Positions 6,943-24,243 of a stretch of DNA of 35,846 bases are shown here, piece by piece. Positions within the stretch are counted from its first letter, which is position 1. Every line of letters begins with the position of its first letter. The notes under the pieces were generated by a model. That model ran no database searches, was not told where the DNA came from, and saw nothing but the letters and a program-made list of their open reading frames with translations. A program made the position numbers and the translations under genes. Where the stretch lies: assembly GCA_021772705.1 (NCBI GenBank), contig JAJFLN010000729.1, positions 1-35,846 on the forward strand, read 5' to 3'. The stretch is from Candidatus Cloacimonadota bacterium. GTDB taxonomy: Bacteria > Muiribacteriota > UBA6191 > JACPRK01.

Positions 6943-8034
6943 TCAGGGGATCAGCACTCCATCCAGATCGGGATTTGAGCCGTCGAGCTTCCAGATCCAG
7001 GCATCGAGGAAGTAGTGGAGGATCTGCGGCAAGGAGAGGACAGCCACGATGAGGGCCGTCGATTCATCCGTGATCTCTGGCAGCGTCCATGACGTGAGGC
7101 CCGGAAGGTACTCTCCCCAGACCATGGCATCCCAGAGGGTCTCCTCGAAGAAGGCCAGCAAGAATATGGGGACGAAGAAAGGAACCCACGTTGTTGCCGA
7201 GAACACTCGTACCAGAAGGGTCTCTTGCACGCCCACTGGCTCGTGGCCCCGCCACTTGTGCCGGCCGCAGTGAAGTATCAAGATCAGGAACGGGATTCCG
7301 TGGAACAGGTTCAGGAAGGCTGCCGAGATGAGAGGGTGCTCGAACCACCAGATCCCCACGAGCCACGTGAACCAGTGACCGGCCATCACCAGGTTCTTGG
7401 CCGGGTTGAACCAGTGGCTCGTTCGATACACGTAGATCTGACGCGCGATGTAGGCCAGCGCCGTGGCTCCGTAGATCGCAACGATGTCGCCCTCCAGGGC
7501 CGGGTCGATCTGAAAGATGAACTTCTCACCGGCGTTGAACCAGTCGAACATCCTCGTCGGTGATGCGTGCCACCACAGAACCGGTCCCAGGGCCCCTGCC
7601 CAGACAGCCCACTTGTCGAGGTGATAGTCGACGGAACTCGTTTCGTTCCCACGAATGCGGTACAGGGACACGAAGCCGTAGTTCTGCTTGATGAAGTGGA
7701 AGATCGCAATGTAGGCGAGGAGGGTCCAGAAGAGTGAGGCCGATACCAGGTGCAGCCGGTAGGAGAGATAGACGCAGACCGGGATCGGCAGCAGGTAGAG
7801 CCAGGGACGGCGGTGGAATTCCCCGGGATCGAAGTAGGTCCTGTAGACCGTGGCCCAGACGTGAGCGACATCGAATGCAATGATCACTCCGATGAATGCC
7901 CACAGCGGAATGGCATGTTCGGAGGGAATGGAGAGACTGCCGAGGGAGAGAACAGCCAGACCGATCGGGACCAGGAACATGGCCAGGTCCGTGCGCCTGG
8001 AGAGTATCCATAACCGGGAATGTCGATCCGTCAT
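6943..8034 (-). CDS. Polytopic membrane protein with His motifs, function unknown
   Basis: Multiple hydrophobic helices with motifs DVAHVWAT, FHFIKQNYG, FHGIPF and HYFLDAWIWK. Confidence 0.75.
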   Translation of the reverse strand: MTDRHSRLWILSRRTDLAMFLVPIGLAVLSLGSLSIPSEHAIPLWAFIGVIIAFDVAHVWATVYRTYFDPGEFHRRPWLYLLPIPVCVYLSYRLHLVSASLFWTLLAYIAIFHFIKQNYGFVSLYRIRGNETSSVDYHLDKWAVWAGALGPVLWWHASPTRMFDWFNAGEKFIFQIDPALEGDIVAIYGATALAYIARQIYVYRTSHWFNPAKNLVMAGHWFTWLVGIWWFEHPLISAAFLNLFHGIPFLILILHCGRHKWRGHEPVGVQETLLVRVFSATTWVPFFVPIFLLAFFEETLWDAMVWGEYLPGLTSWTLPEITDESTALIVAVLSLPQILHYFLDAWIWKLDGSNPDLDGVLIP

Positions 8035-8544: not shown

Positions 8545-9840
8545 TCAGTAGCGCAGTCCTTTCAGGACGGTGCAGCGGAGGGACTCCGATGCTGGCGGAA
8601 GGCCCGTGATCCGCTCAAAATTGAACGAACGATTCGTCAGGTGGGAAACGACCTGGAACAGGTCGCGCTCCGTGGTGGTGTGTAGCTCCATCAACTCCCT
8701 CAATCCTGCCTCGTCTTGCCCTGTCTCCAGGGGAAGCGGCAGGGCCATCGCTCGCGACAGATTGCGGCGCTGGCTCACCAGCTCGGAGAAGAATGTCTGA
8801 TAGGCGGCTGCTCGATCGGGCCTGCGGAAACAGCGACCGACCATCCAGGCCGCTGCTGTGCCCGAGAAGACGGCCAGCACCACTCCCAGGGAGAAGATGG
8901 GATCGATGAATCCTCCAGCATCGCCGACCACGAAGTATCCGGGCCCGGCGTGGGAGCTGACACGGAACGAGTAATCGTAGAGCGCGCGGACGCTGCCGGG
9001 AATGTAATCGGCTTCCTCCAGCAGGTCCTTCAGATAGGGCAAGCTGTGACAGTGCTCCAGGAAGAACCGTTCCTTATGCGACCCACTCAGCTCGGACTTC
9101 TTTACGCTGGACATGGGGAGAACGAGGCCGACGCTCGTGCTCGAACGCATCGGAATGTGCCACGACCATCCCGTCGGTCCAATCGACGAAACAAACGTGG
9201 TGGGCCGAACCTGGCGAAGGCTCTCCATCGGATGGACCTCTCCTCCGTCCGCCACGTACTTACCGCCCTGGAAGTAGCCCCATACGGACAGGAAACGGAA
9301 ATCATCGTCCGGTCGCCTCATGTTCTTCGCTCTGGCGATGCAGGAGGCCCGGCCGCTCGCATCGATTATGTACCGGGCCGACAGGGAACCGGATACCTCC
9401 TCCGACAGAGAGTGATACCTCAGCTCCCCGCCCTGGTCGTCGAGGCGAGCGACGGAGTTGACGGCCACCTCCTCGAAGATCCGAGCGCCTGCACCACGAG
9501 CATGCTCCAGGAGGATCTTGTCGAACCTGTCCCGCTCGACGTGAAGCCCGGGACGGTCGAATCCGAAATCTCCGAACGTCATCTGTCGGAGACAGCCATC
9601 CCAGGCCACCGTCCCTCCCGATTTCTTGATGAATCCTTCTTCCTCGATCGCATCGGAGATTCCTATCCTGTCCGCGTACTTCCAGAAGTGAGGGATCACG
9701 CTCTCGCCGACCATGTTTCGAGGGTGGCGGGCCTTCTCGAGAAGGACCACATCACGACCTTGTCGCGCCAGCATGGCGGCCGCCGAGCTACCCGCCGGAC
9801 CGCCCCCGATGATCGCCACGTCGCAGGTCTTGGGAATCAT
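8545..9840 (-). CDS. Flavin-dependent halogenase family protein (carrier-protein-dependent type)
   Basis: GGGPAGS FAD motif, GES, FIKKSGG (candidate catalytic Lys), WSWHIP (WxWxIP), GDAGGFIDPIFSLGV. Confidence 0.85.
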   Translation of the reverse strand: MIPKTCDVAIIGGGPAGSSAAAMLARQGRDVVLLEKARHPRNMVGESVIPHFWKYADRIGISDAIEEEGFIKKSGGTVAWDGCLRQMTFGDFGFDRPGLHVERDRFDKILLEHARGAGARIFEEVAVNSVARLDDQGGELRYHSLSEEVSGSLSARYIIDASGRASCIARAKNMRRPDDDFRFLSVWGYFQGGKYVADGGEVHPMESLRQVRPTTFVSSIGPTGWSWHIPMRSSTSVGLVLPMSSVKKSELSGSHKERFFLEHCHSLPYLKDLLEEADYIPGSVRALYDYSFRVSSHAGPGYFVVGDAGGFIDPIFSLGVVLAVFSGTAAAWMVGRCFRRPDRAAAYQTFFSELVSQRRNLSRAMALPLPLETGQDEAGLRELMELHTTTERDLFQVVSHLTNRSFNFERITGLPPASESLRCTVLKGLRY

Positions 9841-10151
9841 GAGACAGAACCTCCCTCTTCCGCGGCCGAGAACGCCGGGTCAATCTCCGCCGTGGCCAGC
9901 TGCCGGTGGACCAGCTCGGCAATTCGCCTCGGAGTTTCGAAATTTGCCGGAATGAGCAACCCAGAATCGAGCAACACGTCGTATTCGTCTTCGAGGAATG
10001 CCACCAGCTGGATGAAGCCCATGGAGTCCATCAGGTCGGCCGTGAACAAGTTCGTGTCCACATCGATCTCGGTCACCGTTTTCCCGGATTCTTCCCGGAT
10101 CCAGTCAACGATCTGTTCAAGTCTTCTGTCCGCCTTCGAGGCCATGGCCAT
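9837..10151 (-). CDS. Acyl/peptidyl carrier protein
   Basis: GGAGG RBS before ATG 10151. LMDSMGFIQLVAFLEDEY carries the phosphopantetheine Ser, followed by ANFETPRRIA. ATGA overlap with the halogenase. Confidence 0.85.
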   Translation of the reverse strand: MAMASKADRRLEQIVDWIREESGKTVTEIDVDTNLFTADLMDSMGFIQLVAFLEDEYDVLLDSGLLIPANFETPRRIAELVHRQLATAEIDPAFSAAEEGGSVS

Positions 10152-10640
10152 GGACCGCCTCCCCCCGGGGGGCTTCCCCGGAACCAGGTGAACTCCGTTT
10201 GGATGATCAGAAGCCCATCCTCTGTAGGGCGACTCACAAGGTGCGCCCTCGGGAGGGAACCATGGCAGACGAAGGGGGTGCAGGGCTGTGATGCGGAGCA
10301 CTGAATCGGCTGTGACGCAGGAGGCAACGGGGTGAATCGCTAATGGTGCAGAGGTCACAGCATCCGTGCGAGCTGCGTGAAATAGTGGTGCTGGCTGGAG
10401 GAAACGATCGGGCCAGCGCGGACAGTCCGGCAGAACACTCGGCGTCTCTTCCAGTCGTGCCAGGGGATCTTGCGGTCCTTGCGAGGGGATTCGGCCCCGG
10501 AATTGCGGCAGTGTAGATGACGTCACCGTTCGTGCGATCAGGATCAGCAGCCTCAGTTGTGACCAGCCACACAATGATCGGTACGCGGGCGTATTCTTTG
10601 AGCATCTTCCACACAGATACCCGGGGGGACCGTAGCCAGA

Positions 10641-11408
10641 GTGTTCTTCAGACCCATGGTTAGATGGAAGCTGGTGGCAGGTCTCGCAACGCTGCTCGTC
10701 CTTGCGGGAGCGATCGCATGGTCATGGTTGCGCCATCCGGAAACCACAGCCGCAATGAGGGGCCGGGAGGTCGCTCGGCGGCTGGGCTGCTTCGCCTGTC
10801 ACGGTCCAGATGGACTTGGAGGCGTCGCCGCTCCCGGCGGGGCTGGAGCAAACATGCCGGGGTGGGGCGGAGCTGCGGCGGCAATGTACATGAAGAGCGA
10901 AGAGCAGATCCGGGAGTGGATTCTGTACGGAGCACCGAGGAGTGGGTCGAGAGATGGCACGGCATGGACAACCGATGGCCTCGTCGAAATGCCGGCCTAC
11001 CACGATCTCCTTTCGAACCGGGACCTGGACGATCTTGTGGCCTACTTCCTGGCGGTCTCGGGCTGGGCGCCGGAGATCCCCGACGGCCCCTTCGAGGGCC
11101 GGCGAGTCGCGACTCGCATTGGCTGCTTCGGCTGTCACGGTCCATCGGGAATGGGGGGCGTGCCAAATCCTGGGAGCTTCAAGGGACACATCTCGCCCTG
11201 GGACGGAGAGGAATTCCGTGAACTGGTTCGGAGCGACGCGGAGCTTCGGGAGTGGATTCTGGACGGGTCCATCGCCCGGCTGAGGGACAATCCGCTTGCA
11301 CGGTACTTCCTTGACGGCCAGAAGACCCAGATGCCGGCTTATCGCGGTCACATCTCCAACGAGGAGCTGAACCTGATGGTCCAGTACGTCGGCTGGTTGA
11401 GGCGATGA
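10641..11408 (+). CDS. Membrane-anchored di-heme cytochrome c with an internal duplication
   Basis: N-terminal TM helix, then two repeats G-x7-GCFxCHG...REWILxG...MPAY (CFACH, CFGCH). The start may be ATG a few codons in. Confidence 0.9.
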   Translation: MFFRPMVRWKLVAGLATLLVLAGAIAWSWLRHPETTAAMRGREVARRLGCFACHGPDGLGGVAAPGGAGANMPGWGGAAAAMYMKSEEQIREWILYGAPRSGSRDGTAWTTDGLVEMPAYHDLLSNRDLDDLVAYFLAVSGWAPEIPDGPFEGRRVATRIGCFGCHGPSGMGGVPNPGSFKGHISPWDGEEFRELVRSDAELREWILDGSIARLRDNPLARYFLDGQKTQMPAYRGHISNEELNLMVQYVGWLRR

Positions 11409-13198
11409 TGACTCGCATGGTCCTGGTCTTCATCATCGTGGCCCTGACGTCACTGCTGATCTCGCCCCCATCGAGTGCTTCGAAGCCGGCCGAGCCGGTC
11501 TACAGATCACCGATCCATATCAGCCTCTCTCCTGACGGAGCGACCGCCTACGTCGTCAATCAGGGCTCGGACTCCGTGTCGATCCTCGACGTGCGAAGCC
11601 GTCGAGTGATCGGGGAGATCCCGGTCGGGTCCTATCCGGCCCACGCTGCTGTCTCCGCCGACGGTCTGAGACTCCATGTGAGTAGCCAGTATGGCGCCAG
11701 CGTGGAAATCGTGGACCTGCAGAGCAGGACCGTCGCTCGATATATCCCGACCGACTTCGGTCCACAGGGAGTGTGCCTCTCGGAGGATGGAGCCACCCTC
11801 TACACCGCCAACTCCGTATCCGGCACGGTCTCGTTTCTGGATCTGAAGACCGGCCGGAGCGCCTTCACTGTTCCCGTGGGGCGTGACCCACGATACGTGG
11901 CTCGAACCCCTGACAGCTCTCGACTGATCGTGACCAACGGCCTGTCCCGCAGCGTCTCCATTATCAATCCGGCCCACGGCACGGTCGTCGAGACACGGGA
12001 GCTGGGCAGGGCCTCCCTCCTGCGGCAGGTAGTCTGTTCATCCGATGGCCGGTGGGCCTTCGTGGCGCACCTGGTTTCCCACGATGAAACGGCGACGTTG
12101 CAGATGGAGCGCGGGTGGATTCATTCCAACGGCATCTCGATCCTCGATCTTCAAGAGCCGGGTCACTACGTGACACTTCTGCTCGACCGTCTTCTCCGGG
12201 GAGCTGCCAACCCTTGGGGGCTGGCGCTCTCCGTCGACGGTCGACGACTGTATGTCTCACTTGCCGGTGCCCACGAGGTGGCGATCGTGGATGTGCCAGC
12301 AGCGCTCCGCCTGGTGAGTGAAACCGGGCCCGAGCAGGTCACCCCACTCTCGAAGGACGTGGAGATCGTGGAGCGGCGAGGAATTGCCCGGCGATTCGAG
12401 TCAGGCGGGCTCGGCCCTCGCAGCCTCGCGCTGAGCGAAGCGACGGGGGATCTGCTGGTAGCGAACTACTTCAGCGATGAAGTCTCCTTCCTGGATCCGG
12501 AGTCCGGTGAGATCCGGGCCGTCCTTCCCCTCGGCGCTCCCCAGGAGATGACGCTGTGGCGAAAGGGACAGCTGCTCTTCAATGACGCGCGGCTCTGCTA
12601 CCAGGGCTGGTACAGCTGCGCCAGCTGTCACCAGGAAGATGCCACGGTTGATGGCCTCAACTGGGACCTCCCGAACGATGGGCTGGGAAACTCGAAGAAC
12701 GCGAAGTCACTTCTCGATGTCCACGACTCGCCGCCAGCCATGTGGGGCGCCGTTCGAGCTGACATGGACGCAGCCGTGCAGGCGGGTCAGCGGTTCCTCG
12801 GGTCCATTCCGGTTCCCGAGAATCATCGGGCACTCCTTGCGTTCTTGGGCAATCCCAAGCGCGCGCCGAATCCCTATCGCTCCCGGGCTCCGGAGACCGT
12901 GGCACGAGGCCGGCAGGTCTTCGAGCGGGCTCGTTGTGGGGCCTGTCACCCTGCACCGGTCTACACGGACATGAAAAAGCATGACGTGGGTCTGGCGGCC
13001 AAAACGGACTTGAGGTCCCGGCTGGACACACCGTCGCTCCGCGGCTGCTACAAGACGGCTCCCTACTTGCACGACGGCCGAGCCGAGTCGCTCCGAGAGA
13101 TCTTCAGGTCGCACAATCCAGAGGATCGGCACGGCCGAACGTCGGGCCTGTCGAACAATGAACTCGAGGACCTGCTCGAGTTTCTGAGGAGTCTCTGA
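11405..13198 (+). CDS. Exported YVTN beta-propeller + di-heme cytochrome c peroxidase/MauG-like protein
   Basis: Signal peptide, repeated SPDG..YVVN/YTAN/IVTN blades, CASCH and CGACH, DTPSLRG...TAPYLHDG. Confidence 0.9.
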   Translation: MMTRMVLVFIIVALTSLLISPPSSASKPAEPVYRSPIHISLSPDGATAYVVNQGSDSVSILDVRSRRVIGEIPVGSYPAHAAVSADGLRLHVSSQYGASVEIVDLQSRTVARYIPTDFGPQGVCLSEDGATLYTANSVSGTVSFLDLKTGRSAFTVPVGRDPRYVARTPDSSRLIVTNGLSRSVSIINPAHGTVVETRELGRASLLRQVVCSSDGRWAFVAHLVSHDETATLQMERGWIHSNGISILDLQEPGHYVTLLLDRLLRGAANPWGLALSVDGRRLYVSLAGAHEVAIVDVPAALRLVSETGPEQVTPLSKDVEIVERRGIARRFESGGLGPRSLALSEATGDLLVANYFSDEVSFLDPESGEIRAVLPLGAPQEMTLWRKGQLLFNDARLCYQGWYSCASCHQEDATVDGLNWDLPNDGLGNSKNAKSLLDVHDSPPAMWGAVRADMDAAVQAGQRFLGSIPVPENHRALLAFLGNPKRAPNPYRSRAPETVARGRQVFERARCGACHPAPVYTDMKKHDVGLAAKTDLRSRLDTPSLRGCYKTAPYLHDGRAESLREIFRSHNPEDRHGRTSGLSNNELEDLLEFLRSL

Positions 13199-16100
13199 TG
13201 CGCTGGCTGGTCATACTCCTGGGACTCACGGTCGTTTCGCTGTCGGCGCTGGCCCGAGAGACTCCTCCGGAGAGCGTCCGGGCGGCTCCACCGGAGGACC
13301 CAGCCGCCCTGGGGACGGCGCCGTCCCATTTCGGTAAGCTCACCAGCAGCCGCTGGGCCTACGGCGGGCGCCACGAGCGGCGAAACCTGACTCCCGTGGC
13401 CAATCCGAATCGGGCCCCGGAGCCACAGCCCCGCCGCGATCACCCCTACGATGTCGCCGTCTCTGCCGATGGGACGAAGGTCTACATCGGCCTGCTCGGA
13501 TCCGAACTGGAACCGGGAAGTGAGGTCGCCGTGTACGACGTGGCCACCGACGAGATCGTCAAGCGCATCGTCCTGAAGATGGCGGCAGAAAAGGGAGCCG
13601 CCGGCTCTGGTCCCGGCAGACTGACACTCCATCCGAGCGGGTACGCGCTGGTCGTGACGAATCGATTCTCCAACTTCGCCACTGTGATCGACACGCGAAC
13701 CGATCAGGTCACATCGGAGATTCCCCTCGACTTCTACTGCCAGGACATCGCCTTCACAGGGAAGGGCCAGCGAGCCTACGTGGCCAACCGGTACCTCGAC
13801 CAGGTGTTCGTCGTGGACGTCAAGGCTGGGGCCAGGTCACTGGAGGCGACCATGAGTGTGCAAGGAGGACTGGACGACCGGTCATTCTACAGGGAGGTTC
13901 ATCCGGCGCTGGTCCGTGGCTGCGGCACGGCCGGCTGTCACGACAGGAGTCGGGGTGGATTCGTCGCAGGCCCCGACGGCCGCGACAGTTTTCTCTCCGC
14001 CCTCGGCCACGTGCGACCCGGAAACTCGGCCGGGAGCCGCCTGATCCGGGCTGCGGTACGCACGGCCAATGGCGGGTACGGTGACCGGAAGCCTCTGTAT
14101 CTGAGTCACGCCGATGGGACGGTGGTCTTTCCGGATCCGGCGAACGATTCAGACTACCGGACAATCGCCCGGTGGATCGATGGGGCCTCCGAAGGTCCGG
14201 GAATTCCGGTGGGCAATCGGCGCAGCAAGCCGAAGGTCTGTGTGCTCAGCACCGATGAGCGTTACCTGTTCGTGGGAAACACGGGGACGCAGGACATCTC
14301 CATCGTGGACACGAAGACGCTGCGAGAGGTCGGCGGGATTTACATACAGAACGCTGTCGACGACCTGAAGGTGCACCACTCCCGCGAGACCGGTCGTGAC
14401 TATCTGATCGTGGCGACCCGAGGCGTTGGCTTCGGTGTCCCGGCGGAACGGGACCCCCACGGGGGAGAGAGCTGGGATGTCCGCAATCCGGCAGCCCACT
14501 TCTCCGTCTGGCGTGACACGATCACGGGCAGCATCCTGCCACGATCGGAACAGGAGATCCTGGGGCCATTCGATGCAGTCGATGGGACAGGGGAGATCGG
14601 TTTCAGGGACATGCAGAACGACATCGTCTTCATTGACCTCTCCCGTCTGGACATCCCGAGCGCCCTGGCCAGTAACGGGCTCCGGTACCTGCTGGAGCCA
14701 AACCGCTACGAGGCGCACCGAGGCTGGGTACGCTACACATCCGACACTGCGGAGTCCACCCGAGGGGACATCAAGGGCGACATCCCGCCGGACCTGATGC
14801 GTGTCGTGGGGGCAACGCCGGAACAGATGGCCATCGTGAAGGATCGTCTCTACGTGACCATGCTCGGGAGCAACCAGGTCCAGGAGTGGCGGATCGACGT
14901 CGGAGCCCGGGAGCCGAGCGACTATCTCGTTCCGGTCCGGGTGGTCGACACCGGGCTGCAGCCCATGGGGATCGCCGCTGCGCCGGACGGGACGGTCTAT
15001 GTGGCCAACTTCCTCGGAGGAACAGTCTCTGTGATTGACGCCAAGTCGGGTGCGTCACGAGAGGTAATCGTGGACCCTTCGGTGGAGCGTCTGCCCGTGC
15101 CGGCAACGAATGCCGAACGAGGGGAGATCTTCGTCCGGGGCGCCGCCTTCTCGTCTGACGGCGATCTCTCCTGCTTTCATTGCCATCGGGACGACATGAA
15201 CGATGGACGTGCCTGGGGCACTCACCAGGTGATGGCCCAGGAGTATCTGTCCGGGGCCGGAGAGGATTCCCGTCGCGCCATAGGCGCCACCATGGGTGTC
15301 CCCCAGCTTCGAGGGCTCAACGACATCCAGCCCCTCTACTTCGAGGGTACATTCACGGTGTTCGAACAGCCACGGGAAGCGATGATCGAGCAGGCGCCGA
15401 TCGACGACTTCCTGGGTTCGACTCCGGCCGGAGACTTCACCACCCTCGAGGCGCACGTCATGCGGCACGGAGCCGGAGATTTGACGCTCCCTGCTATTCA
15501 GCCAGGCGTGCTCGCGAGTCTGGAAGAACGTCGAGATGAGCTGTTCCGCCGTGAGTCGATACGTTACTTCGGCAAGGCCTACAGCCTGCTGGATGTCCAG
15601 CGCTTCGCCGGTGAGTGGCAGGCCAGCGAGCCGCGCCTCCTGCCGAACCCCTTCGACCAGACCAGCCGATCCGTGTTGCGAGGCAAGGTGCTGTTCGAGG
15701 ACCCGCAGGTCGGCTGTGTTTCGTGCCATCCCGCTCCTCACTTTGCCAAGAAGGACCTCCGGGACAACCGGCAGCAGGCCTTCGCGCCCCAGGTGACATT
15801 CACTGCCCGGGACGGCTCGTCGACCCTGATCGGAATGTACCGCCTGGACAGCATTAACGGAGTGCAGCGGGACCTGGAACCGTGGGATGTGGGGCGGGTG
15901 GAGGAGGTTCAGGGGCACTTCACGTCATTCCAGCTCCGGGGGATCTGGGATCGTCCGCCATCCTTCCTGCATAACGGAATGGCCCGGACTCTGCACGAGG
16001 TCGTCGCCACACCCGGTCATCCAGGACTCGGGAAATACAAGTACGAGCCGCTCATCGGCGGTGTCCCCGAGCGACCGGGCCGTCGAGAGGTGGGCTTCAA

Positions 16101-16251
16101 CATGACCTGGCTCTTCAAGAAGCGCTCGGACAGAACGAAGCTCCACATGAAGTCCGGGGCCCGGCTGGGTTTCGATACCCACGGCGGCACATCACACCTG
16201 ACGGCACAACAGGTCGACGACTTGGTCGACTTCCTGGACTCCATCGAATGA
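13198..16251 (+). CDS. Large exported beta-propeller + CcP/MauG-like cytochrome with an extra atypical heme motif
   Basis: Signal peptide, YVAN/VVTN/FVGN blades, CGTAGCH, CFHCH, CVSCH, QLRGIWDRPPSFLHNG. The C-terminus is paralogous to the upstream gene. Confidence 0.85.
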   Translation: MRWLVILLGLTVVSLSALARETPPESVRAAPPEDPAALGTAPSHFGKLTSSRWAYGGRHERRNLTPVANPNRAPEPQPRRDHPYDVAVSADGTKVYIGLLGSELEPGSEVAVYDVATDEIVKRIVLKMAAEKGAAGSGPGRLTLHPSGYALVVTNRFSNFATVIDTRTDQVTSEIPLDFYCQDIAFTGKGQRAYVANRYLDQVFVVDVKAGARSLEATMSVQGGLDDRSFYREVHPALVRGCGTAGCHDRSRGGFVAGPDGRDSFLSALGHVRPGNSAGSRLIRAAVRTANGGYGDRKPLYLSHADGTVVFPDPANDSDYRTIARWIDGASEGPGIPVGNRRSKPKVCVLSTDERYLFVGNTGTQDISIVDTKTLREVGGIYIQNAVDDLKVHHSRETGRDYLIVATRGVGFGVPAERDPHGGESWDVRNPAAHFSVWRDTITGSILPRSEQEILGPFDAVDGTGEIGFRDMQNDIVFIDLSRLDIPSALASNGLRYLLEPNRYEAHRGWVRYTSDTAESTRGDIKGDIPPDLMRVVGATPEQMAIVKDRLYVTMLGSNQVQEWRIDVGAREPSDYLVPVRVVDTGLQPMGIAAAPDGTVYVANFLGGTVSVIDAKSGASREVIVDPSVERLPVPATNAERGEIFVRGAAFSSDGDLSCFHCHRDDMNDGRAWGTHQVMAQEYLSGAGEDSRRAIGATMGVPQLRGLNDIQPLYFEGTFTVFEQPREAMIEQAPIDDFLGSTPAGDFTTLEAHVMRHGAGDLTLPAIQPGVLASLEERRDELFRRESIRYFGKAYSLLDVQRFAGEWQASEPRLLPNPFDQTSRSVLRGKVLFEDPQVGCVSCHPAPHFAKKDLRDNRQQAFAPQVTFTARDGSSTLIGMYRLDSINGVQRDLEPWDVGRVEEVQGHFTSFQLRGIWDRPPSFLHNGMARTLHEVVATPGHPGLGKYKYEPLIGGVPERPGRREVGFNMTWLFKKRSDRTKLHMKSGARLGFDTHGGTSHLTAQQVDDLVDFLDSIE

Positions 16252-17207
16252 CAACACGACTGACACAGGGTCTGATCGGTGCCGTGGCAGTGACCGTGAT
16301 CGGCTATCTGGTGATCTCCGGTAACTCGGCACCGGAGGCTTCCAGCTCGACAGTCGAGGAGATCCTCCACGGCCGGGACGGATCGATCATGGTGGTCGTT
16401 CCGGCGGCCAGGATCAGCACTGGCGATCACGAAACGCACCCGGACCTCCCGGCGGAACAGCTGGGCGACAAACCTCTCAAGCCTTACGAGGTCTTCACGG
16501 TCCGAGCAGAGCCCGGCTGGAGGCCGGGAAGCGAACCGGCGAGGACCATCGACGTCCCGGCCTTCGCCATCGACCGGTACGAGGTCAGCAACGGCCAGTA
16601 CCGGAAGTTCCTCGACTGGATCACACGAACCGGTGACCACCGGTCATGCCATCCCGATGAGGCGAAGTCGAAGGACCACACCCCCAGGTACTGGAAGGAG
16701 TTCAATCCGTTGCTGAGGGACCGGCGCTACGGGCAGACCACACCCTTCGGCTCCGAGACGTTCACGGGGAACTCGAATCCCGTGGTGGGAGTGGACTGGT
16801 TCGACGCCTTCGCCTACGCAGAGTGGGCGGGAAAGCGCCTCCCGGCGGAAGCGGAGTGGGAGCTGGCCGCCCGGGGTACTGATGGACGCCGGTGGCCCTG
16901 GGGAAGCGAGTGGCAGTGGGGGAAGGCGAACACGGGAGGAGAGAAGCGAGGTCTGGACACTGTTCCGAAGGGCAAGGAGAGAGATGGCTACATCTACTCT
17001 GCCCCCGTGGGCACCTACCCGGACGGAAGGAGCCCCTTCGGCTGTGACGATATGGCGGGAAACGTCGCCGAGTGGAGCCTGGAGCGAGCCGTCAGGGGCG
17101 GCAGTTCCCGAAGCTCTCCGAGTTCAGTTCGCTGCTCCGTCCGTTCGGTCCGTGAACCAGAGTTCCGGACGTTCACGCTGGGATTCCGCTGCGCCAGGGA
17201 TCTATGA
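16248..17207 (+). CDS. FGE-sulfatase (SUMF1/EgtB/PvdO-like) domain protein with N-terminal anchor
   Basis: FAIDRYEVSNGQY, PVVGVDWFDA, RLPAEAEWELAARG, DMAGNVAEW, RGGS, GFRCA. Confidence 0.9.
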   Translation: MTTRLTQGLIGAVAVTVIGYLVISGNSAPEASSSTVEEILHGRDGSIMVVVPAARISTGDHETHPDLPAEQLGDKPLKPYEVFTVRAEPGWRPGSEPARTIDVPAFAIDRYEVSNGQYRKFLDWITRTGDHRSCHPDEAKSKDHTPRYWKEFNPLLRDRRYGQTTPFGSETFTGNSNPVVGVDWFDAFAYAEWAGKRLPAEAEWELAARGTDGRRWPWGSEWQWGKANTGGEKRGLDTVPKGKERDGYIYSAPVGTYPDGRSPFGCDDMAGNVAEWSLERAVRGGSSRSSPSSVRCSVRSVREPEFRTFTLGFRCARDL

Positions 17208-17444
17208 GCACTGCATCCTGTCATCCATCGGCTCGAGAGCGCACGCCATCTGCGGTCAGATCGGGTTATGACAGAGCGCGTCAAAGTCGGACCAGCAATG
17301 GCGACTGAGGTCACCGCATCTGGAGCTGGCAGAGCGATAGACTGACGATGAATCCAGAATCCGGGCTCAGGTAACCCTCTCTCATGGCCTGCGGGAGCAT
17401 GACTCCGACAGGCCGCGGAGCGACCCATCCCCAGGAGGTTGGAC

Positions 17445-19358
17445 ATGGACAGAGACTCCAGTGCGAGAACCGGTGGCGGCGTGATAGTGGGAGTGCTGGC
17501 GGCCTGGACCCTCTTCGAGTTGCTGAGCGGAGGCAAGATCTGGCATGGGTTCAGCACCGGAGGCCTCGATCAACACGTACTCCTGGGCCACGTGATCTTC
17601 GGGTTCCTGGTCATGCTGCCCGCAGTGCTGGCCGCCGGCCGGGCGGCAACAGCCGGGAGGCGTCAACACGGCAGGCTGGTGGAAGGCCTCCTTGGGCTGG
17701 CCGTGCTCAGTGCCGGTGCATCTGGCTGCTGGCTTTTCGTCAAGGGCTCCTCCGTGATGCCGACTCTGGGGCGGGACTCTCACCTGGTGACGGGGATAGG
17801 CTGCGTGCTGCTGCTGACGCTGGTCGCCATCGGCCCTCGTGGCCAGAACCTCCGCTTGGCCGGGGCCCGGTCGGGCCTCGCCTGGATCGTGCCTGTGGTG
17901 GCACTGGCGGTCCCCTTCGGAACCGTCGGCGTCACCCTCTCGGTCTGGCCCGAGGAGTCCATGGAGATTCCGTTCCCTGAGAAGTACTTTCGCCCAAGCG
18001 GACCCTTCCTTCCGGCCCGTACTCTGACCTCTCATGGTGGAGCCGTGAAGATCGAGGCGCTGGCAAACTCGCACCGCTGCGGCAAGTGCCACACCGGCAT
18101 TTACGAGCAATGGAAGTCCAGCCTTCACCGCCAGTCCACTGTCTCCAAGTGGTATCAGGCCGGGCTCAAGGCGCGTATGGAGACTGCCATGGCCAGCGGC
18201 CCCGCGGGCGCCCGGTTCTGTGGCGCTTGCCACGAACCGATCGTGACTCTGTCGGGAAACATGGACAAACGTGGTCTCGGCCCGCAGTACCCGCCGAACC
18301 TGGACCAGGGCATCAGCTGCACCCACTGTCACCGGATGACAGGGATTCGTGACACCTACGGCAATGGCAGCTACATCTACTCCGCTCACCGGCCCTACCT
18401 CTTCGAGAACTCCGACAGCCCGCTGCTCGCTTCCCTGGGACGGGGGCTCCTTCGCTCCAAGCCCGATGTTCACGCTCGGGACCTGATGCAGCCCTTCTAC
18501 AGCACCTCGGAGTCCTGTGCTACCTGTCATCAGATCTTCATGAAGACCATGTACGGAAAGCTGTTCGAGATTCAGAACGACTACAACTCCTGGAAAGCCA
18601 GCAGCTACAGCAAGGACGGCCCCAACAAGGCGATGAAGAACTGTCAGCATTGCCACATGCCTCTCGTCGAAGCGGAGGACCCGGCCTCGATCGGTGGCAA
18701 GGTCCACAGTCATCGCTTCGTCGGCGCCAACACGGCCGTTCCATTTCAGGAGAACAACCCGGACCAGCTGGCCCGAACCGAGGAGTTCCTCAAGCAGGCC
18801 TGCTACCTCAACGTCCAGGGACCCGAGAACATCGATGCCGGGGAGGAAGCTGAATTCCAGGTAGTGGTCACCAATGCAAACGTGGGACACTCCTTCCCGG
18901 GAGGAGCGACGGACATGGTGAATGCCTGGATCGAGGCCATCGCCACCGACGGTGACGGCAATCAGATCTTCGCCAGCGGCCTGGTAGATCCCGACACCCT
19001 TTACGTCGATCCCGAATCCCACCAGTATCGGACCTACCCTATCGATATCTACGGCAAGCACCTCTTCACGCGAGCCGTATGGAACATTCATGAAGTGACA
19101 GAGAGCCGCCTCATCCAGCCCAACGAGTCCGACGTCGCCCGGTTCCGTGTTCCCATAACTCCGGGGACAAAGGGGCCGATCGAGTTCCGGGCAAGGCTCC
19201 GGTTCCGCCGATCCAGCCAGCGGTTCACCGACGCCGTCTTCCCGAACACGAAGATGGTCTTGCCCATCACGGACATGGCCAGCGACTCCCTGCAGGTCTC
19301 CCTGGGCCCAGGAGACGAGCCGGGAGCCTCTTCAACAACCCAGGGCGACGCGAACTGA
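17445..19358 (+). CDS. Membrane-anchored pentaheme c-type cytochrome (c554-like) with C-terminal beta-rich domain
   Basis: AGGAGG RBS shortly upstream, several N-terminal TM helices, five CxxCH motifs (CGKCH, CGACH, CTHCH, CATCH, CQHCH), HSHRFVG, GHSFPGG. Confidence 0.9.
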   Translation: MDRDSSARTGGGVIVGVLAAWTLFELLSGGKIWHGFSTGGLDQHVLLGHVIFGFLVMLPAVLAAGRAATAGRRQHGRLVEGLLGLAVLSAGASGCWLFVKGSSVMPTLGRDSHLVTGIGCVLLLTLVAIGPRGQNLRLAGARSGLAWIVPVVALAVPFGTVGVTLSVWPEESMEIPFPEKYFRPSGPFLPARTLTSHGGAVKIEALANSHRCGKCHTGIYEQWKSSLHRQSTVSKWYQAGLKARMETAMASGPAGARFCGACHEPIVTLSGNMDKRGLGPQYPPNLDQGISCTHCHRMTGIRDTYGNGSYIYSAHRPYLFENSDSPLLASLGRGLLRSKPDVHARDLMQPFYSTSESCATCHQIFMKTMYGKLFEIQNDYNSWKASSYSKDGPNKAMKNCQHCHMPLVEAEDPASIGGKVHSHRFVGANTAVPFQENNPDQLARTEEFLKQACYLNVQGPENIDAGEEAEFQVVVTNANVGHSFPGGATDMVNAWIEAIATDGDGNQIFASGLVDPDTLYVDPESHQYRTYPIDIYGKHLFTRAVWNIHEVTESRLIQPNESDVARFRVPITPGTKGPIEFRARLRFRRSSQRFTDAVFPNTKMVLPITDMASDSLQVSLGPGDEPGASSTTQGDAN

Positions 19359-19459
19359 GGCGTCATCTGGCCCCGGTGAGGCCAGATCCACTAGGGCTTC
19401 GGTCCTGACGGCACAGTCGTCTTGCGGAAGACCTCGGATCAGCCGGCCCTACGGCCGGG

Positions 19460-20521
19460 TCAGGGCGTGATGGCTGCGATGCGGTTGATCCTGTCGACGA
19501 GAGCGGCGAACTCTTCCATGTTCAGACTCTGATCTCCGTCACACCAGGCGTGGGTGGGATCGAAGTGCACCTCCACCAGCAGACCGTCGGCACCGGAGGC
19601 GATGGCGGCCGCCGCCAGTGGGAGGACGTACTTCCGGAGCCCGGCTGGATGGCTCGGATCGGCGATGACCGGCAGGCCGGACCGATCCTTGAGAATCGGG
19701 ATGGCACCCACGTCGAGGGTGAATCGAGTCGACTGTTCGAAGGTCCGGATGCCTCGTTCGCAGAGGATCAGCCCGGGTGACTCGTGCCCCGCCGCCAGGC
19801 GGCCCAGCTGGATGTATTCCGCTGCCTCGAGGAACTCGTCGACCGTGGCGCCGAATCCTCGCTTCAACAGAACCGGCTTGCCCGCATCATGCCGCCCCGC
19901 CTTGTACAGGAGCGGGAAGTTGAACATGTTTCGGGAGCCGATCTGAACCACGTCGGCATGACTGGCCACCAGATCCAGTTCGGTGGTGTCCAGCACCTCC
20001 GTGACCACCGGAAGTCCCGTCAGATCCCTGGCTGCCGTGAGAGCGCGGAGACCCGCCTCGCCCAGCCCTCCGAAGGAGTAGGGTGAAGTCCTGGGCTTGA
20101 AGGCTCCACCTCGCAAGGCCAGGGCGCCGGCGTCCTTCACGGTCGCGGCGATCCGACAGACCTGTTCCACACTCTCCACGCTGCAGGGACCGGCGATTAC
20201 CACGGGCTGTCCACCGCCTATCCGTGCGCCGTTGGGGAGCGTCACGGTCCTGTCAGCATCCGGGTTGACGCAGTCGATGAGGTACTGGCCCGGCGGCAGC
20301 TGCACGATCTTCCGTACTCCCTCTCGCGCCGAGAGTTGCCGCAGGAGAGCCGGGTCGGGCGTGGACTCAGTCCTGCAAGTGACGACGCCGGACTGGTGTA
20401 CACGAACTCTCCGATCCCCTTCGAGAGACAGCCCCAGGGCTCCCAGAAGCTGCTCCAGGGACCGGGGGGCAGCGGACTCATCGAACAGGACGACCAGGCG
20501 GGTCACTCCATTGGGAATCAT
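19460..20521 (-). CDS. aroF: 3-deoxy-7-phosphoheptulonate (DAHP) synthase, class I-beta
   Basis: IAGPCSVES, GGAFKPRTSPYSF, QIGSRNM, LLKRG, LCERGIRTFE, DPSH, VEVH, CDG. Start ATG 20521 with a GAGG RBS. Confidence 0.92.
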   Translation of the reverse strand: MIPNGVTRLVVLFDESAAPRSLEQLLGALGLSLEGDRRVRVHQSGVVTCRTESTPDPALLRQLSAREGVRKIVQLPPGQYLIDCVNPDADRTVTLPNGARIGGGQPVVIAGPCSVESVEQVCRIAATVKDAGALALRGGAFKPRTSPYSFGGLGEAGLRALTAARDLTGLPVVTEVLDTTELDLVASHADVVQIGSRNMFNFPLLYKAGRHDAGKPVLLKRGFGATVDEFLEAAEYIQLGRLAAGHESPGLILCERGIRTFEQSTRFTLDVGAIPILKDRSGLPVIADPSHPAGLRKYVLPLAAAAIASGADGLLVEVHFDPTHAWCDGDQSLNMEEFAALVDRINRIAAITP

Positions 20522-20580
20522 ACGGGTTTCCTCATTTCCTAAGTGCAATGCCGGTGAGATAATATGGATTTTGTTGTAGT

Positions 20581-20630
20581 GGGGCTCAGCCCCACACCCC
20601 GTTGGGGGAGCCACCTCCCCCAAACCCCCA
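20581..20630. repeat. Double-hairpin GC-rich palindromic element
   Basis: GGGGCT-C-AGCCCC and TTGGGGGAG-CCAC-CTCCCCCAA followed by ACCCCC. Confidence 0.55.
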
Positions 20631-20788
20631 ATTGGTCTGGTGGGACTGAGAGTGCTGATGAACACTTGAATGACATACGAAAGCTTGACCTGTTCATCCG
20701 GGTCCAGGGGCCAATGGCCCCTGGCGGGAGTTCGAGGGCAGTGCCCTCGTTTTCAAACATTTCCTCCACTAATTCATGGGTATTGGGC

Positions 20789-21637
20789 CTAGCCTCTCGC
20801 GCCGCGGACGTAGGCTGCGGTCAGTTCGCACTTTGGTGATTCGAAGAAGTCCCGGCAGCGGGAGTGTTCCGCCAGATGGCCGGCGCCATCCTTCACCCAG
20901 AAAAGGGCCACGTGGTCCGCGATGCGGCGTGCTTGAGCCAGGTTGTGAGTCACGATGACCAGCGTGTAAGTCTCGCGTAAACGATGAATCAGGTCTTCCA
21001 CTACGCCGCTGGATATGGGGTCCAGGGCGCTGCAGGGTTCGTCCAGAAGGAGTACCTCGGGTCTCAGGACCAGGGCCCTGGCGATGCAGAGACGCTGCTG
21101 CTGCCCCCCGGACAACCGCAGAGCTGGCGTGTCCAGACGCGCGTGCACCTCATCCCAGAGTCCCACGGCTCGCAGGACCTCTTCCATGCGTGACTGAACT
21201 TCATGACGGTCAGAAACAGCGTGCTCCCTCAGGGGGAGCTCCAGGTTCCGCCGAATTGTCAGAGGAAAAGGATTCGGTTTCTGGAAGATCATCCCCACTC
21301 GTCGCCGCAGGGACGTGAGGTCGATCTCTGTCCCGACAAGTTCCTCTCCCACCAAGGTGGCGCTGCCGGTGACGTGGCAATCGGTAAACAGATCGGTCAA
21401 CCGGTTCAGACAGGCGAGGAAGCTGGATTTGCCGCAGCCTGAAGGCCCCACAATGGCGGTGATCTCTCCCTGCCGAATAGGGAGCGTGATGTCTCGGAAC
21501 GCCACATGTGGGCCGTATCGTAGCGTGAGTTTCCTGGTCTCGACATGAATCCGGGGCAGGATTCGCGGCGGCCGCCGGCGCTCGGCATTCGACTGCAGCG
21601 CAAGAGTCTCGGGCATTCTTTGCTTTGCGTTTCTCAT
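20789..21637 (-). CDS. pstB: Phosphate ABC transporter ATP-binding protein
   Basis: GPSGCGKS, LRRRVGMIFQKPNPFP, LSGGQQQRLCIARAL, LLLDEPCSALDP, VTHN. ATGA overlap with the pstA stop. Confidence 0.92.
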   Translation of the reverse strand: MRNAKQRMPETLALQSNAERRRPPRILPRIHVETRKLTLRYGPHVAFRDITLPIRQGEITAIVGPSGCGKSSFLACLNRLTDLFTDCHVTGSATLVGEELVGTEIDLTSLRRRVGMIFQKPNPFPLTIRRNLELPLREHAVSDRHEVQSRMEEVLRAVGLWDEVHARLDTPALRLSGGQQQRLCIARALVLRPEVLLLDEPCSALDPISSGVVEDLIHRLRETYTLVIVTHNLAQARRIADHVALFWVKDGAGHLAEHSRCRDFFESPKCELTAAYVRGARG

Positions 21638-22476
21638 GTCCGTATCCGCCTCCGTAGCCAGACATTGGCCATGAGAGAGGCCGTGAGGTTGATGCCAATG
21701 AGAAGCGCCACGAGTACGAGGGCTGATGCGTGGGAGTTGCCGTCCCCGCCAGGGACGTTCATCGACAGGTCGTAGATGTGCACCGAGAGAGTTCTGCCGG
21801 AGTCGAAGATGCTGGTGGGCCATCGGCTCACGTAGCCACTGGTGAAGAGCAGAGCTGCCGTTTCGGCCAGAGCGCGACCGATGCCGAGCACGAGTCCCAC
21901 CAGCAACCCTGGAGTGGCGGCCGGCAGCAGCAGGTGCACCAGGGTTGAAGTACGGGACATTCCGAGGGCCGCAGCCGCGTGGCGGTACTCAACCGGAACC
22001 GATCGCAGCCCCTCCTCTGTAGAGCGAATCACGAGTGGCAGTGCCATGCAGGCCAGGGTCAGTCCGCCGGAGGCGATCGAGAACCCCATTCCGAGAGCCC
22101 GGCAGAAGAGGGCATTGCCAAAGAGGCCGAACACGATGGAGGGAATACCGGCCAGGACGTCCAGGCTCGCACGGATCAGCCGCGTCGCTCTCCGGCCCTC
22201 GGAGCCATACTCGGATAGAGCCACTGCGGCGCCCACGCCTATGGGAACGGCCACGGTCATGCAAACGCCGAGGATCAGGACCGTCGAGACAAGGATGGGA
22301 GCGATCCCTCCCTGGCGCCCAGCGTCGATAGGGGAGCCCAAGAGGAAATTCAGGTCCACTCGCCGGAACCCATGTCCCATTACGTCGAATAGTATCCAGC
22401 CAGCAATAGCGAGCACCATGAAGGCGGAGCACCAGCAAGCCAGCTCCAGGAGGCGATCCGTTCGAGACTCACGCAT
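21634..22476 (-). CDS. pstA: Phosphate ABC transporter permease PstA
   Basis: GGIAP, LAGIPSIVFGLFG, IGRALAETAALLFT, RTLSVHIY. Confidence 0.9.
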   Translation of the reverse strand: MRESRTDRLLELACWCSAFMVLAIAGWILFDVMGHGFRRVDLNFLLGSPIDAGRQGGIAPILVSTVLILGVCMTVAVPIGVGAAVALSEYGSEGRRATRLIRASLDVLAGIPSIVFGLFGNALFCRALGMGFSIASGGLTLACMALPLVIRSTEEGLRSVPVEYRHAAAALGMSRTSTLVHLLLPAATPGLLVGLVLGIGRALAETAALLFTSGYVSRWPTSIFDSGRTLSVHIYDLSMNVPGGDGNSHASALVLVALLIGINLTASLMANVWLRRRIRT

Positions 22477-23326
22477 CGATTCCCTCCGGAGAGAGGACTT
22501 CGGCCAAGGCGACAAGCCCTGTTACGATCAAGGCCAGCAGCAGTCCCGTCGCGAAGAGCGACGAACGGTGAAGGTCCATGGCATAGGCCATCTCCAGGGC
22601 TATGTTGGCCGTGAGGGTCCTCACGGGGTCGAGGAGGCTTTCGGGAGTGCGTACCACGTTGCCGCAGACCATCAGGGCGGCCATGGTCTCGCCCAGGGCT
22701 CGTGCCGTGGCCAGCAGGACCGCCGTGAAGATCCCGGAGCTGGCCGCCGGAAGGATGACCCCCCGCAAGGCTCCCCAGCGCGTCATCCCCAGCGCGGCTG
22801 CCCCCCTCGAGTAATCGGCGGGGACGCTCTCCAGGGCGGCGTCCACCAGCAGGGCGATGGTCGGCAGAACCATGATTGCCACCACCAAGATCCCCGCGAG
22901 TACGCTCGCTCCGGGTGGACGAATGCGGGCGATGAGCGGCACGAGTACGACCAGCCCCCAGAAGCCATAGACGACGGAGGGGAGCCCCGCCAGGAGTTCC
23001 AGAATCCGCCGAAGGAGCTTGCCCAGCGGGCGGGGAGCGTAGCAGCGGCAGAACAGCGCCGACAGGAGGCCGATCGGTGTCGCCAACAGGAGCGCCCCAG
23101 CCGTGACGGTGAGAGTGCCTGCAATCATGGGCCAGAGGCCAAACTGCCCGCTCGTCGGTCGCCACGCACTGTCGGTCAGCAGGCGGCCCGCACCCGTCGT
23201 TCGCAGGAGAGGAAGCGACTCATGCACGAGATACAGGATGACGAGCAAGAGCAGCGTGCCGGCCAGGATCGCGCAGCCCTTCACGAGGACACCCAGCAGT
23301 TGATCCGTCTTTCGATTTCGGTTCAC
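22469..23326 (-). CDS. pstC: Phosphate ABC transporter permease PstC
   Basis: WRP...FGLWPMIAGT, ELLAGLPSVVYGFWG, RALGETMA. Confidence 0.9.
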   Translation of the reverse strand: MNRNRKTDQLLGVLVKGCAILAGTLLLLVILYLVHESLPLLRTTGAGRLLTDSAWRPTSGQFGLWPMIAGTLTVTAGALLLATPIGLLSALFCRCYAPRPLGKLLRRILELLAGLPSVVYGFWGLVVLVPLIARIRPPGASVLAGILVVAIMVLPTIALLVDAALESVPADYSRGAAALGMTRWGALRGVILPAASSGIFTAVLLATARALGETMAALMVCGNVVRTPESLLDPVRTLTANIALEMAYAMDLHRSSLFATGLLLALIVTGLVALAEVLSPEGIDA

Positions 23327-23328
23327 TC

Positions 23329-24183
23329 TCAGGGCCGTATCGGCACGAAGGCCAGTCCCGCCACCAGGTCGGCCACCTCGGCAGAGCGGGCGAAGTCGAT
23401 GAAGCTCTTCGCCAGTCCTTCCGGGGGAAGGCTACTGACGAGGTTCAACCGGCGCGACAGAGGGAAACGGCCCTGTTGCAGACTCGATACGGAGGCCTCC
23501 ACTCCCCCCATCGGCAGCAACCTGATGGAGACACCTCGAGCGGCATCGGTCTCCGCCGTTCCGATGGAGACATAGCCCAGGGCTCCTGGAAGTCCGGCCA
23601 CCGTCTTGACGCCTTGCTCGTTGTCGCCAATAACGACGTCAGCTCGTATCTCGGAGTTCTCCAGGCCAAAGTGGGAGAGGAACAACTCCAACGTGGACCG
23701 GCCCTCGGCTTTGTTGACCACGGTGATCGTCCGATCCTCTCCGCCGACGTGGGACCAGTTTCTGATCTGCCCCCGATAGATCGCGACGACTTGCTCGTCC
23801 GAGAGCTCCGTCACGGGATTGGCCCGATTCACGATGAGAGCGATTCCATCCCCGGCGATGGTGAAGGCCAGCAAGTCGGACTCCGAGGTCTTCAGGTCGC
23901 GGGACACCATCCCGATGTCGGCAACTCCGCTGCGTGCGTCGGCGATGCCTCGTGCCGACCCTCCTGTCTGAACGTCGATGCGGACTCCGGGATGCTGATC
24001 TTCGTAACGGCGAGCGATCTCCGTCGCGAGAGGAGCAACCGTGCTCGAGCCAGTCAATGTCAGCCTGTTCGCGGACTGTGATGTGACCCGAGACTGGCCG
24101 CAACTTGCCACCAGCAGAGACAGCAGGCCCAGGGCCAGGAGGAGCCCATGTCGCGGATTCGTCTGTGCGATGTTCTCGTTCAT
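23329..24183 (-). CDS. pstS: Phosphate ABC transporter substrate-binding lipoprotein (PstS-like)
   Basis: Lipobox LVASC, GSSTVAP, GGSARG, GMVSR, DGIALIVN, GALGYVS, FPLSRRL. Confidence 0.85.
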   Translation of the reverse strand: MNENIAQTNPRHGLLLALGLLSLLVASCGQSRVTSQSANRLTLTGSSTVAPLATEIARRYEDQHPGVRIDVQTGGSARGIADARSGVADIGMVSRDLKTSESDLLAFTIAGDGIALIVNRANPVTELSDEQVVAIYRGQIRNWSHVGGEDRTITVVNKAEGRSTLELFLSHFGLENSEIRADVVIGDNEQGVKTVAGLPGALGYVSIGTAETDAARGVSIRLLPMGGVEASVSSLQQGRFPLSRRLNLVSSLPPEGLAKSFIDFARSAEVADLVAGLAFVPIRP

Positions 24184-24243
24184 GATGGCGAGTTTCCTTT
24201 CCTGGCATCAGGTCTCTCGAGGAGAGGTCGAGATGGATGCAAC

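Follow-up and report, generated by a model that had tools for sequence, protein, structure and literature searches.

The window analyzed here is a 35,846-nucleotide stretch of DNA (contig JAJFLN010000729.1) from the genome of a Candidatus Cloacimonadota bacterium (GCA_021772705.1, here G000; 858 contigs, 84.8% complete, 3.55% contamination), and our subject is a row of five genes on its forward strand, g1 to g5, which encode predicted exported or membrane-anchored proteins. The first four, g1 (10641-11408, 255 aa as first called), g2 (11405-13198, 597 aa), g3 (13198-16251, 1017 aa) and g4 (16248-17207, 319 aa), overlap one another by 4 nt (g1/g2, at 11405), 1 nt (g2/g3, at 13198) and 4 nt (g3/g4, at 16248), while g5 (17439-19358, 639 aa as first called) stands apart. 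A script counted two CxxCH heme motifs in g1, two in g2, two plus the sequence CGTAGCH in g3, none in g4 and five in g5, for a total of 11 CxxCH and one CxxxxCH. Coordinates and count agree with the original prediction, made from the sequence alone, of four translationally coupled genes followed by a co-oriented pentaheme gene, and the signal peptide or anchor that it claimed for every protein has its counterpart in an N-terminal hydrophobic segment in each of the five. Promoter and terminator scans of positions 10000-20800 gave no sites above the level of shuffled sequence, and consensus strings sought in the 350 nt 5' of g1 in 18 sequences (17 loci and the window) were uninformative, with FNR/CRP strings in 2/18 and Fur and NsrR strings in 0/18 each. 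The classification of these proteins and the operon structure set out below are, in our judgment, very probably correct.

The first gene is predicted to encode a membrane-anchored diheme cytochrome c of the CcoP/cbb3 type, with heme motifs CFACH and CFGCH and Pfam matches to Cytochrome_CBB3 (2.6e-13) and Cytochrom_C (4.3e-13). In Lacunisphaera limnophila g1 is fused to g2, since the N-terminal 252 residues of protein P0084 (845 aa, WP_069962728.1) are 50% identical to g1 and the rest is g2-like; because this homolog aligns from there, the true start of g1 is probably the ATG at 10656. Among the 120 best g2 homologs listed, 42 are 731-865 aa long, the fusion having been checked by alignment for P0084 only. 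We infer that g1 serves as a dedicated electron donor to g2.

The second gene probably encodes an exported protein with a seven-blade YVTN propeller and, after it, a diheme domain of the cytochrome c peroxidase (CcP)/MauG type (heme motifs C405xxC408H409 and C511xxC514H515), the arrangement found in subunits beta and gamma of hydrazine synthase (HZS) from Kuenenia stuttgartiensis (5C2V chains B and C) and in the fused HzsBC of Scalindua. Searched with the HZS family models of NCBIfam (NF052342, NF052340 and NF052341, which have curated cut-offs), g2 matched hydrazine_BC at an E-value of 2.8e-68 with 230.7 bits against a cut-off of 1250, the beta model with 173 bits (cut-off 560) and the gamma model with 99.8 bits (cut-off 625); neither g2 nor g3 matched hydrazine-alpha. 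Among PDB structures, g2 matched 5c2v_B at 1.6e-48 and 5c2v_C at 6.3e-26, and its whole-chain ranking began with an archaeal YVTN propeller (1l0q), followed by 5c2v_B and 5c2v_C, the last of these being the best match of the diheme part. A stretch WDL..(D/N).G.G..KN.K and a motif HG.TS are common to g2 and HzsC, and H576-G577 is invariant among 25 g2 homologs. The likeness to HzsB and HzsC named in the original prediction is thus borne out for g2, and for g3 by a structural match described below.

The active site of the gamma subunit is another matter. In a HMMER alignment to 5c2v_C, where the CxxCH position gave a shift of 39 between chain index and published numbering, gamma His144, Cys165 and Asp168 are replaced in g2 by W447, L465 and I468, respectively. 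According to the available text of PMC12607021, heme I of gamma is bound by three cysteines, Asp168 is the proton supplier, and the second heme of HzsC is bis-His coordinated and takes electrons from cytochrome c, a type of donor which the present gene set also offers; the His-to-Trp change is reported, in the portion of PMC12758564 at hand, for other HZS homologs outside the anammox bacteria. Because three gamma active-site residues are replaced, N-N/N-O chemistry of the HZS type, one of the possibilities named in the original prediction, is not simply transferable to g2. Cys398, which lies beside the first heme motif of g2, was considered as a third link to that heme and rejected, as it is not conserved.

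The residue that takes the place of His144, W447, is kept in at least 90% of the 25 g2 homologs and aligns with the Trp of 2c1u, as would suit a periplasmic peroxidase in which g2 (and g3) act as diheme cytochrome c peroxidases, drawing on g1 for the electrons needed to remove H2O2. Such a peroxidase is also in keeping with the presence of a cytochrome c donor and with a Pfam CCP_MauG (PF03150) score for g2 of 38.2 bits, above the cut-off of 25.6; however, this match is limited to profile positions 7-76 of 149, the NCBIfam CytoC_perox score is 21.4 bits against a cut-off of 150, the second heme of g2 carries the HG.TS motif of the bis-His heme in HzsC, and no alignment to bacterial CcP extends past PYxHxG. 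A peroxidase would moreover leave two propellers, two proteins of the formylglycine-generating enzyme (FGE) fold and a chorismatase superfluous, and g3 lacks the Trp, all of which makes this explanation quite unlikely. More generally, g2 resembles diheme CcP, MauG and MbnH in its CCP_MauG-type first heme region, the conserved Trp that follows and a PYLHDG-type motif, and differs from them in its propeller fusion, its HzsC-like second heme motif and family scores far under the cut-offs. Both g2 and g3 are therefore best placed, as judged from their family and motif comparisons, in an HZS-like branch of the CcP/MauG superfamily, to which RoxA also belongs, and they are not a hydrazine synthase.

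The third protein is predicted to be an exported propeller with an inserted one-heme c domain and a divergent, gamma-like diheme domain. Its three heme sites, C242xxxxC247H248 in the insert (the CGTAGCH sequence), C659xxCH and C840xxCH, are invariant in 35/35 homologs, including C242, C247 and H248, and an ordinary CxxCH occupies the position of the CxxxxCH in 3/11 aligned homologs (L015, L019 and L027), and the CxxxxCH is thus a genuine heme site. The NCBIfam scores of g3 (hydrazine_BC 9.8e-17, 60.3 bits; hydrazine_gamma 3.1e-10, 39.5 bits; beta 55.3 bits) are all far below the cut-offs; its C-terminal part matched 5c2v_C at 7.7e-7, and PF03150 gave no match in g3. An AlphaFold model of g3 (pTM 0.80) is confident in the propeller and the insert, and its top Foldseek match was 5c2v_B (E 2.2e-15, TM 0.72 on target). 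At the site of HZS His144, g3 and its homologs have Phe or Leu before an invariant E716-G717. The heme insert matched no Pfam family even at an E-value of 10, and a supposed likeness to cytochrome domains of planctomycetes is thus unsupported. Names given to these proteins in a protein atlas are generic only ('YncE', 'lactonase family').

The fourth gene is predicted to encode a membrane-anchored protein of the FGE fold that is inactive as FGE. The fold named in the original prediction stands, given matches to Pfam FGE-sulfatase (PF03781; 6.4e-43, 147.7 bits) and, as the best in the PDB, to CalU17 (7ml6, 9.9e-25). The copper-binding catalytic cysteines of FGE, which we take to be Cys336 and Cys341 in the human enzyme, do not: in the alignment to human FGE (2aft) the Cys336 stretch is missing, Cys341 lies opposite a Pro and only the third Cys of the stretch is kept. 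Because both catalytic cysteines are absent, g4 should be unable to act as FGE. Its family has instead a signature of its own, KDHTPRYW, with K142, H144, P146 and Y148 invariant among 21 homologs and H135 kept in at least 90% of them; this signature and the insert with His135, not seen in the printed FGE and CalU17 alignments, may form a metal or ligand site. Among longer proteins, those nearest to g4, with 50-57% identity to it in their FGE part, are ApbE::FGE fusions of the kind found in the sister operon described below, one of which also holds RnfD and NuoF domains, and none of the best 120 longer g4 relatives has an HZS_alpha domain.

To place these genes among other genomes, we compared 57 loci, of which eight are genome loci found with g2 and 49 are metagenome loci found by g3 alignment; 56 hold a g3 match. 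These 56 were divided by g3 identity alone, and not by gene content, into type A (at least 54%; 34 loci) and type B (42-50%; 22 loci). The order g2-g3-g4 recurs in seven of the eight genome loci, and these seven are labeled Planctomycetota, 'delta proteobacterium', Nitrospirota and Elusimicrobia. Within type A, all 20 testable loci have g2 directly 5' of g3, 18 of 20 have g1 5' of g2, and in 24 of 25 an FGE-fold gene lies 3' of g3. The genes g1-g2-g3-g4 are accordingly a conserved module that recurs in several bacterial phyla.

Type B loci (for example L059, L071 and L079:6327-19106) have a different but equally regular order, in which an HzsA-like gene (1170-1255 aa) comes first and after it a g3-like gene, an FGE-fold gene, an ApbE::FGE fusion, a small multiheme cytochrome, an RnfD::NuoF-like fusion and a 2Fe-2S/4Fe-4S ferredoxin-like gene. 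An HzsA-like gene was found in 16 of the 22 loci, an ApbE part in 17 and the RnfD::NuoF fusion in 12, counts that are lower bounds since many contigs are short, and the three markers were found in 0/34 type A loci; an FGE-fold gene lies 3' of the g3-like gene in 15 of 17 testable loci, so that g3-type and g4-type proteins are the core common to both operon types. This sister operon resembles a route by which electrons from NADH would reach a periplasmic HZS-like enzyme. Since the g3-like gene adjoins the HzsA-like gene in type B, g2 holds the HzsA-like slot in type A. No HzsA-like domain was found in the host genome, in line with the original prediction: PF18582 had no match across G000, at its completeness of 84.8%.

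MauG and MbnH modify proteins encoded beside them, and the constant company of g3-type and FGE-fold genes in both operon types invites the explanation that the diheme proteins oxidatively modify a partner, likeliest the FGE-fold proteins, to make a protein-derived cofactor or metal site. The His-rich signature of the g4 family (H135, K142, H144, P146 and Y148) also speaks for it. Against such a maturase, the scores for NCBIfam MauG (TIGR03791; 45.7 bits vs a cut-off of 443.85) and MbnH (TIGR04039; 45.6 vs 362.85 bits) are far below the family level, no MauA/B-like or MbnP-like partner was found among the Pfam matches of the window proteins, and a maturase has no need for an anchored cytochrome and two large propellers at equal gene dosage. 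We regard this explanation as distinctly unlikely.

The distribution of the module is patchy. Homologs of g3 were found in six of 87 genomes of the host phylum, in none of four genomes of the same family, and, for the phylum of L009, in at least 6 of the 401 genomes sampled, with two candidates per genome scored; the family as a whole is rare, with 64 matches at E ≤1e-30 among 1.84 billion cluster representatives. Full-length g3 was not seen on plasmids, as 0/32 matching plasmid records cover at least 80% of it. Because of this patchy spread, the data suggest that g1-g4 were acquired horizontally.

The fifth gene has a different history. Its product, with five CxxCH motifs and about five hydrophobic segments within the first 170 residues, is predicted to be a polytopic membrane pentaheme cytochrome, for which the matches are generic (a weak Pfam match to Cytochrome_C554; ExtKL, NF040886, 40.1 bits against a cut-off of 250); its true start is probably the ATG at 17445, because AGGAGG lies just upstream. 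In the original prediction this protein wired electrons between the membrane and the catalytic subunits, and a five-protein complex with g5 as its integral membrane wire could point to the co-orientation of g5, its position about 237 nt downstream of g4 and the lack of a terminator-like site between the two (in a scan of 10000-20800 that yielded shuffle-level numbers, 4 vs 4.4), as well as to a g5-like c554-type multiheme gene, 27% identical, that lies 5' of the HzsA-like gene in sister-type locus L059. The comparative data speak against it: none of the 34 loci with a close g3 relative has g5, which occurs in one of 22 sister-type loci; it was not found in four of the five genomes that hold L009 and L013-L016, the fifth having a g5-like protein; and its spread is complementary to that of g3, with g5 present in 4/4 same-family genomes and g3 in 0/4. 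Within the phylum, g5 was found in G000 and its four family relatives and in 0/82 other genomes. An ABC-2 exporter lies 3' of the orthologs in these relatives (including L099 and L100) and of a 70%-identical g5 paralog on contig C827 of G000 itself (L095:1302-4146), a hint that cytochrome and exporter make up a unit of their own, specific to the family. A complex with g5 as an integral part is therefore very improbable; co-occurrence in other genomes holds for g1-g4 and fails for g5, which appears from this distribution to be a resident gene beside which g1-g4 landed, offering the conserved system at most a local electron entry point.

The conserved system is at the same time larger than the gene set in the window: as a rule it also has a second FGE-fold gene and a chorismatase-fold enzyme, often joined by a DAHP synthase. 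In type A loci, g4 is usually followed by the second FGE-fold gene and then by a gene of about 390 codons with a Pfam call of Ribonuc_L-PSP. Of 12 testable loci, nine have this gene 3' of the second FGE gene; two more have it 5' of g1, and it is present somewhere in 12 type A loci of several phyla. Its best NCBIfam match is FkbO/Hyg5 (TIGR04444; 3.1e-11, 43.1 bits), and a profile of 12 members ranked chorismatases (5ag3 and 5a3k, 9.6e-10; FkbO, 4bps, 1.5e-5) above single-domain RidA proteins. In a structural model (pLDDT 82.9), the top seven Foldseek matches were all chorismatases (E ~1e-15, TM 0.64-0.68 on target), to which the protein is about 19-20% identical, and C377-R378, invariant in 12/12 members, aligns with the Cys-Arg of the DVCR motif in 5ag3. 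The product is accordingly chorismatase-like, and it is predicted to be a cytoplasmic enzyme. In G000, the second FGE-fold gene and the chorismatase-like gene (L084:13686-14861) lie side by side at the end of contig C136; the protein encoded there shares with the FkbO/Hyg5 chorismatases (4BPS, 5AG3, 5A3K) the whole-chain fold and the Cys-Arg pair, and differs from them in its setting, beside periplasmic heme proteins instead of within polyketide or non-ribosomal peptide clusters.

In the window, a DAHP synthase gene (19460-20665, reverse strand) is convergent with g5 and matches NCBIfam PRK08673 with 378.5 bits, above the cut-off of 335. In a phylogenetic tree, its product falls into a clade with 100/100 support together with the cluster-linked DAHP synthases of L009-L012, L015, L034 and L035, separate from two other paralog clades that are shared with relatives of the host.

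Taken together, we tentatively favor the reading that g1-g4 (10641-17207) are a single translationally coupled operon and that it encodes a periplasmic multiheme enzyme system acting on a chorismate-derived compound. In outline, g1 would pass electrons to the outer heme of g2, which has the HG.TS motif as in HzsC, and g2 and g3 would work as a pair, as HzsA and HzsBC do. The open inner hemes of g2 and g3 could then activate O2, H2O2 or NO as the small oxidant, in the manner of CcP and MauG, and the activated oxidant would be used on a chorismate-derived compound of the hydroxybenzoate type, either a substrate or the precursor of a cofactor, which the FGE-fold proteins might bind or present as membrane-anchored ligand-binding or adaptor subunits. 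Oxidation of organic substrates has precedent in CcP-fold diheme enzymes, namely MauG and RoxA. This proposed chemistry is doubtful. A more specific version, in which g2-g3 is a two-active-site enzyme in the style of HZS, with a second beta-gamma-like protein in the place of HzsA, one heme making a reactive intermediate (from NO, O2 or H2O2) and the other coupling or applying it to a chorismate-derived aromatic that the chorismatase and DAHP synthase of the operon would provide, and with the FGE-fold proteins as subunits that bind ligands, we consider quite improbable; if true, it would constitute a new class of periplasmic heme chemistry on aromatics, with N-aryl, N-N or quinone-type products possible.

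Several observations weigh against this reading. The C-terminal diheme domain of g3 is poorly modeled by AlphaFold, and at the key position g3 has neither the Trp of CcP nor the His of HZS. The score of the chorismatase-like protein, 43.1 against a cut-off of 325 bits, means that its substrate is suggested by fold and neighborhood. In G000 this gene and the second FGE-fold gene lie outside the g1-g4 operon, on contig C136, in an assembly that is fragmented into 858 contigs. Of 11 testable loci, only five have a DAHP synthase gene 3' of the chorismatase; the DAHP synthase of the window pairs (85/88) with that of a relative, G063, in which g3 was not found, and a shikimate kinase gene lies near the g5 homolog of another relative, G066. 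From this pairing and the shikimate kinase it follows that the DAHP synthase adjacency may predate the arrival of g1-g4, and it may thus be ancestral to the host family and no part of the module. Finally, a conserved exporter for an aromatic product is missing from the cluster.

The same facts can be arranged around nitrogen, with g2 and/or g3 as a small nitrogen-oxide reductase that reduces NO or hydroxylamine at the inner heme, a reaction also proposed for HZS gamma, with g1 as donor, for detoxification or respiration, the aromatic genes being unrelated. HzsC is the closest solved relative of both diheme domains, g2 has its WDL..(D/N).G.G..KN.K and HG.TS motifs and a dedicated cytochrome c donor, and the NADH-linked input module of the sister operon fits a reductive role. 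Against such a reaction, g2 has Leu for Cys165, Trp for His144 and Ile for Asp168, Asp168 being the proton supplier in the part of PMC12607021 cited above; moreover, no nitrogen-cycle gene was seen in the annotation of the window, and the explanation leaves the chorismatase-like gene in 12 loci of several phyla unaccounted for. A nitrogen-oxide reductase is thus unlikely, and action on a chorismate-derived compound remains our preferred, if tentative, reading.

Pairs of hzsA-like and hzsBC-like genes have been described in non-anammox bacteria, and a broader family with other substrates has been suggested, in the accessible portions of PMC10732223 and PMC12758564. As far as those portions go, the pairs resemble the present genes in having a fused beta-gamma-like protein with two C-terminal heme motifs, Trp in place of His144 and a wide, patchy spread, and our sister operon type appears, by its gene content, to be of the same kind. 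The g1-g4 module differs from them in the partner of the g3-type protein, which is alpha-like there and the beta-gamma-like g2 here. From HZS itself, for which the best NCBIfam scores of g2 and g3 are 230.7 and 60.3 bits against 1250, it differs also in having a second beta-gamma-like protein with an extra heme as the partner, and in the added FGE-fold and chorismatase/DAHP synthase genes. The terms formylglycine, sulfatase, chorismat- and ApbE have no occurrence in the main text of PMC12758564, whose supplementary tables may list such loci, and the available text of PMC10732223 mentions no FGE, chorismatase or ApbE partners. In agreement with the original statement that no named pathway has this gene set, literature searches, which did not extend to subscription journals or supplementary files, found no characterized operon and no description of this gene set or of the sister operon.

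Hydrazine synthase was, to our knowledge, long regarded as nearly without relatives, and the recent papers on distant HZS-like pairs in other bacteria assign no function to them. What is new here is a distinct operon type, spread across phyla, in which the partner of the g3-type protein is another beta-gamma-like protein and not an HzsA-like one. For the chemistry of the HZS-like family as a whole, the module gives two leads, namely a partner molecule that is probably aromatic and a cytochrome donor of its own, and Lacunisphaera limnophila, as a cultured carrier of the g1-g2 fusion (WP_069962728.1), provides a testable system. If the chemistry proves to be a new nitrogen or aromatic redox reaction, it would bear on the evolution of the anammox enzyme and on periplasmic heme catalysis.

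Some related loci have features of their own. The closest relatives of the window g3, at 74% identity, are second g3 copies flanked by the second FGE-fold gene on one side and the DAHP synthase gene on the other (L034:2087-14013 and L035); in L034 this copy comes after a complete set of g1, g2, g3, g4 and the second FGE-fold gene, so that two g3 paralogs exist in one organism. Locus L015 (130-5786), which bears an Elusimicrobia label, has a module without g1 that adjoins a Crp/FNR-type regulator, and a divergent shikimate block with an aroK/aroB fusion, chorismate synthase and EPSP synthase lies near it. On contig C136 of G000, a TumE-toxin-like and an HVO_A0114/MarR-like open reading frame (ORF; L084:10529-11399) lie just 5' of the second FGE-fold gene and its chorismatase-like neighbor.

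Upstream of g1, the window carries a B12-binding radical SAM gene and an FAD-dependent halogenase-like gene with a small PP-binding carrier protein (4015-5409 and 8545-10574), the halogenase side being divergent from g1. The genes on this side, that is the halogenase-like gene, the carrier protein gene and a 363-aa ORF (6943-8034), were considered as members of the module and rejected; neither the halogenase-like gene nor the 363-aa ORF adjoins the other clusters when used as a query, and large ORFs upstream in L010 and L011 are common to those two loci only. Farther upstream (223-3790), a 962-aa ORF with a BrxL-like ATPase piece and AAA_21/SMC-like domains is followed by a gene for a Schlafen AlbA_2 protein, and both genes look like phage-defense genes. 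Downstream of the DAHP synthase gene lies a phosphate uptake block (20789-25713, reverse strand) with pstB/pstA/pstC/pstS-like ABC genes and an OprO/P-type phosphate porin, and positions 32016-35684 encode a 1222-aa STAND NTPase (NB-ARC/AAA_16) with a long TPR array.

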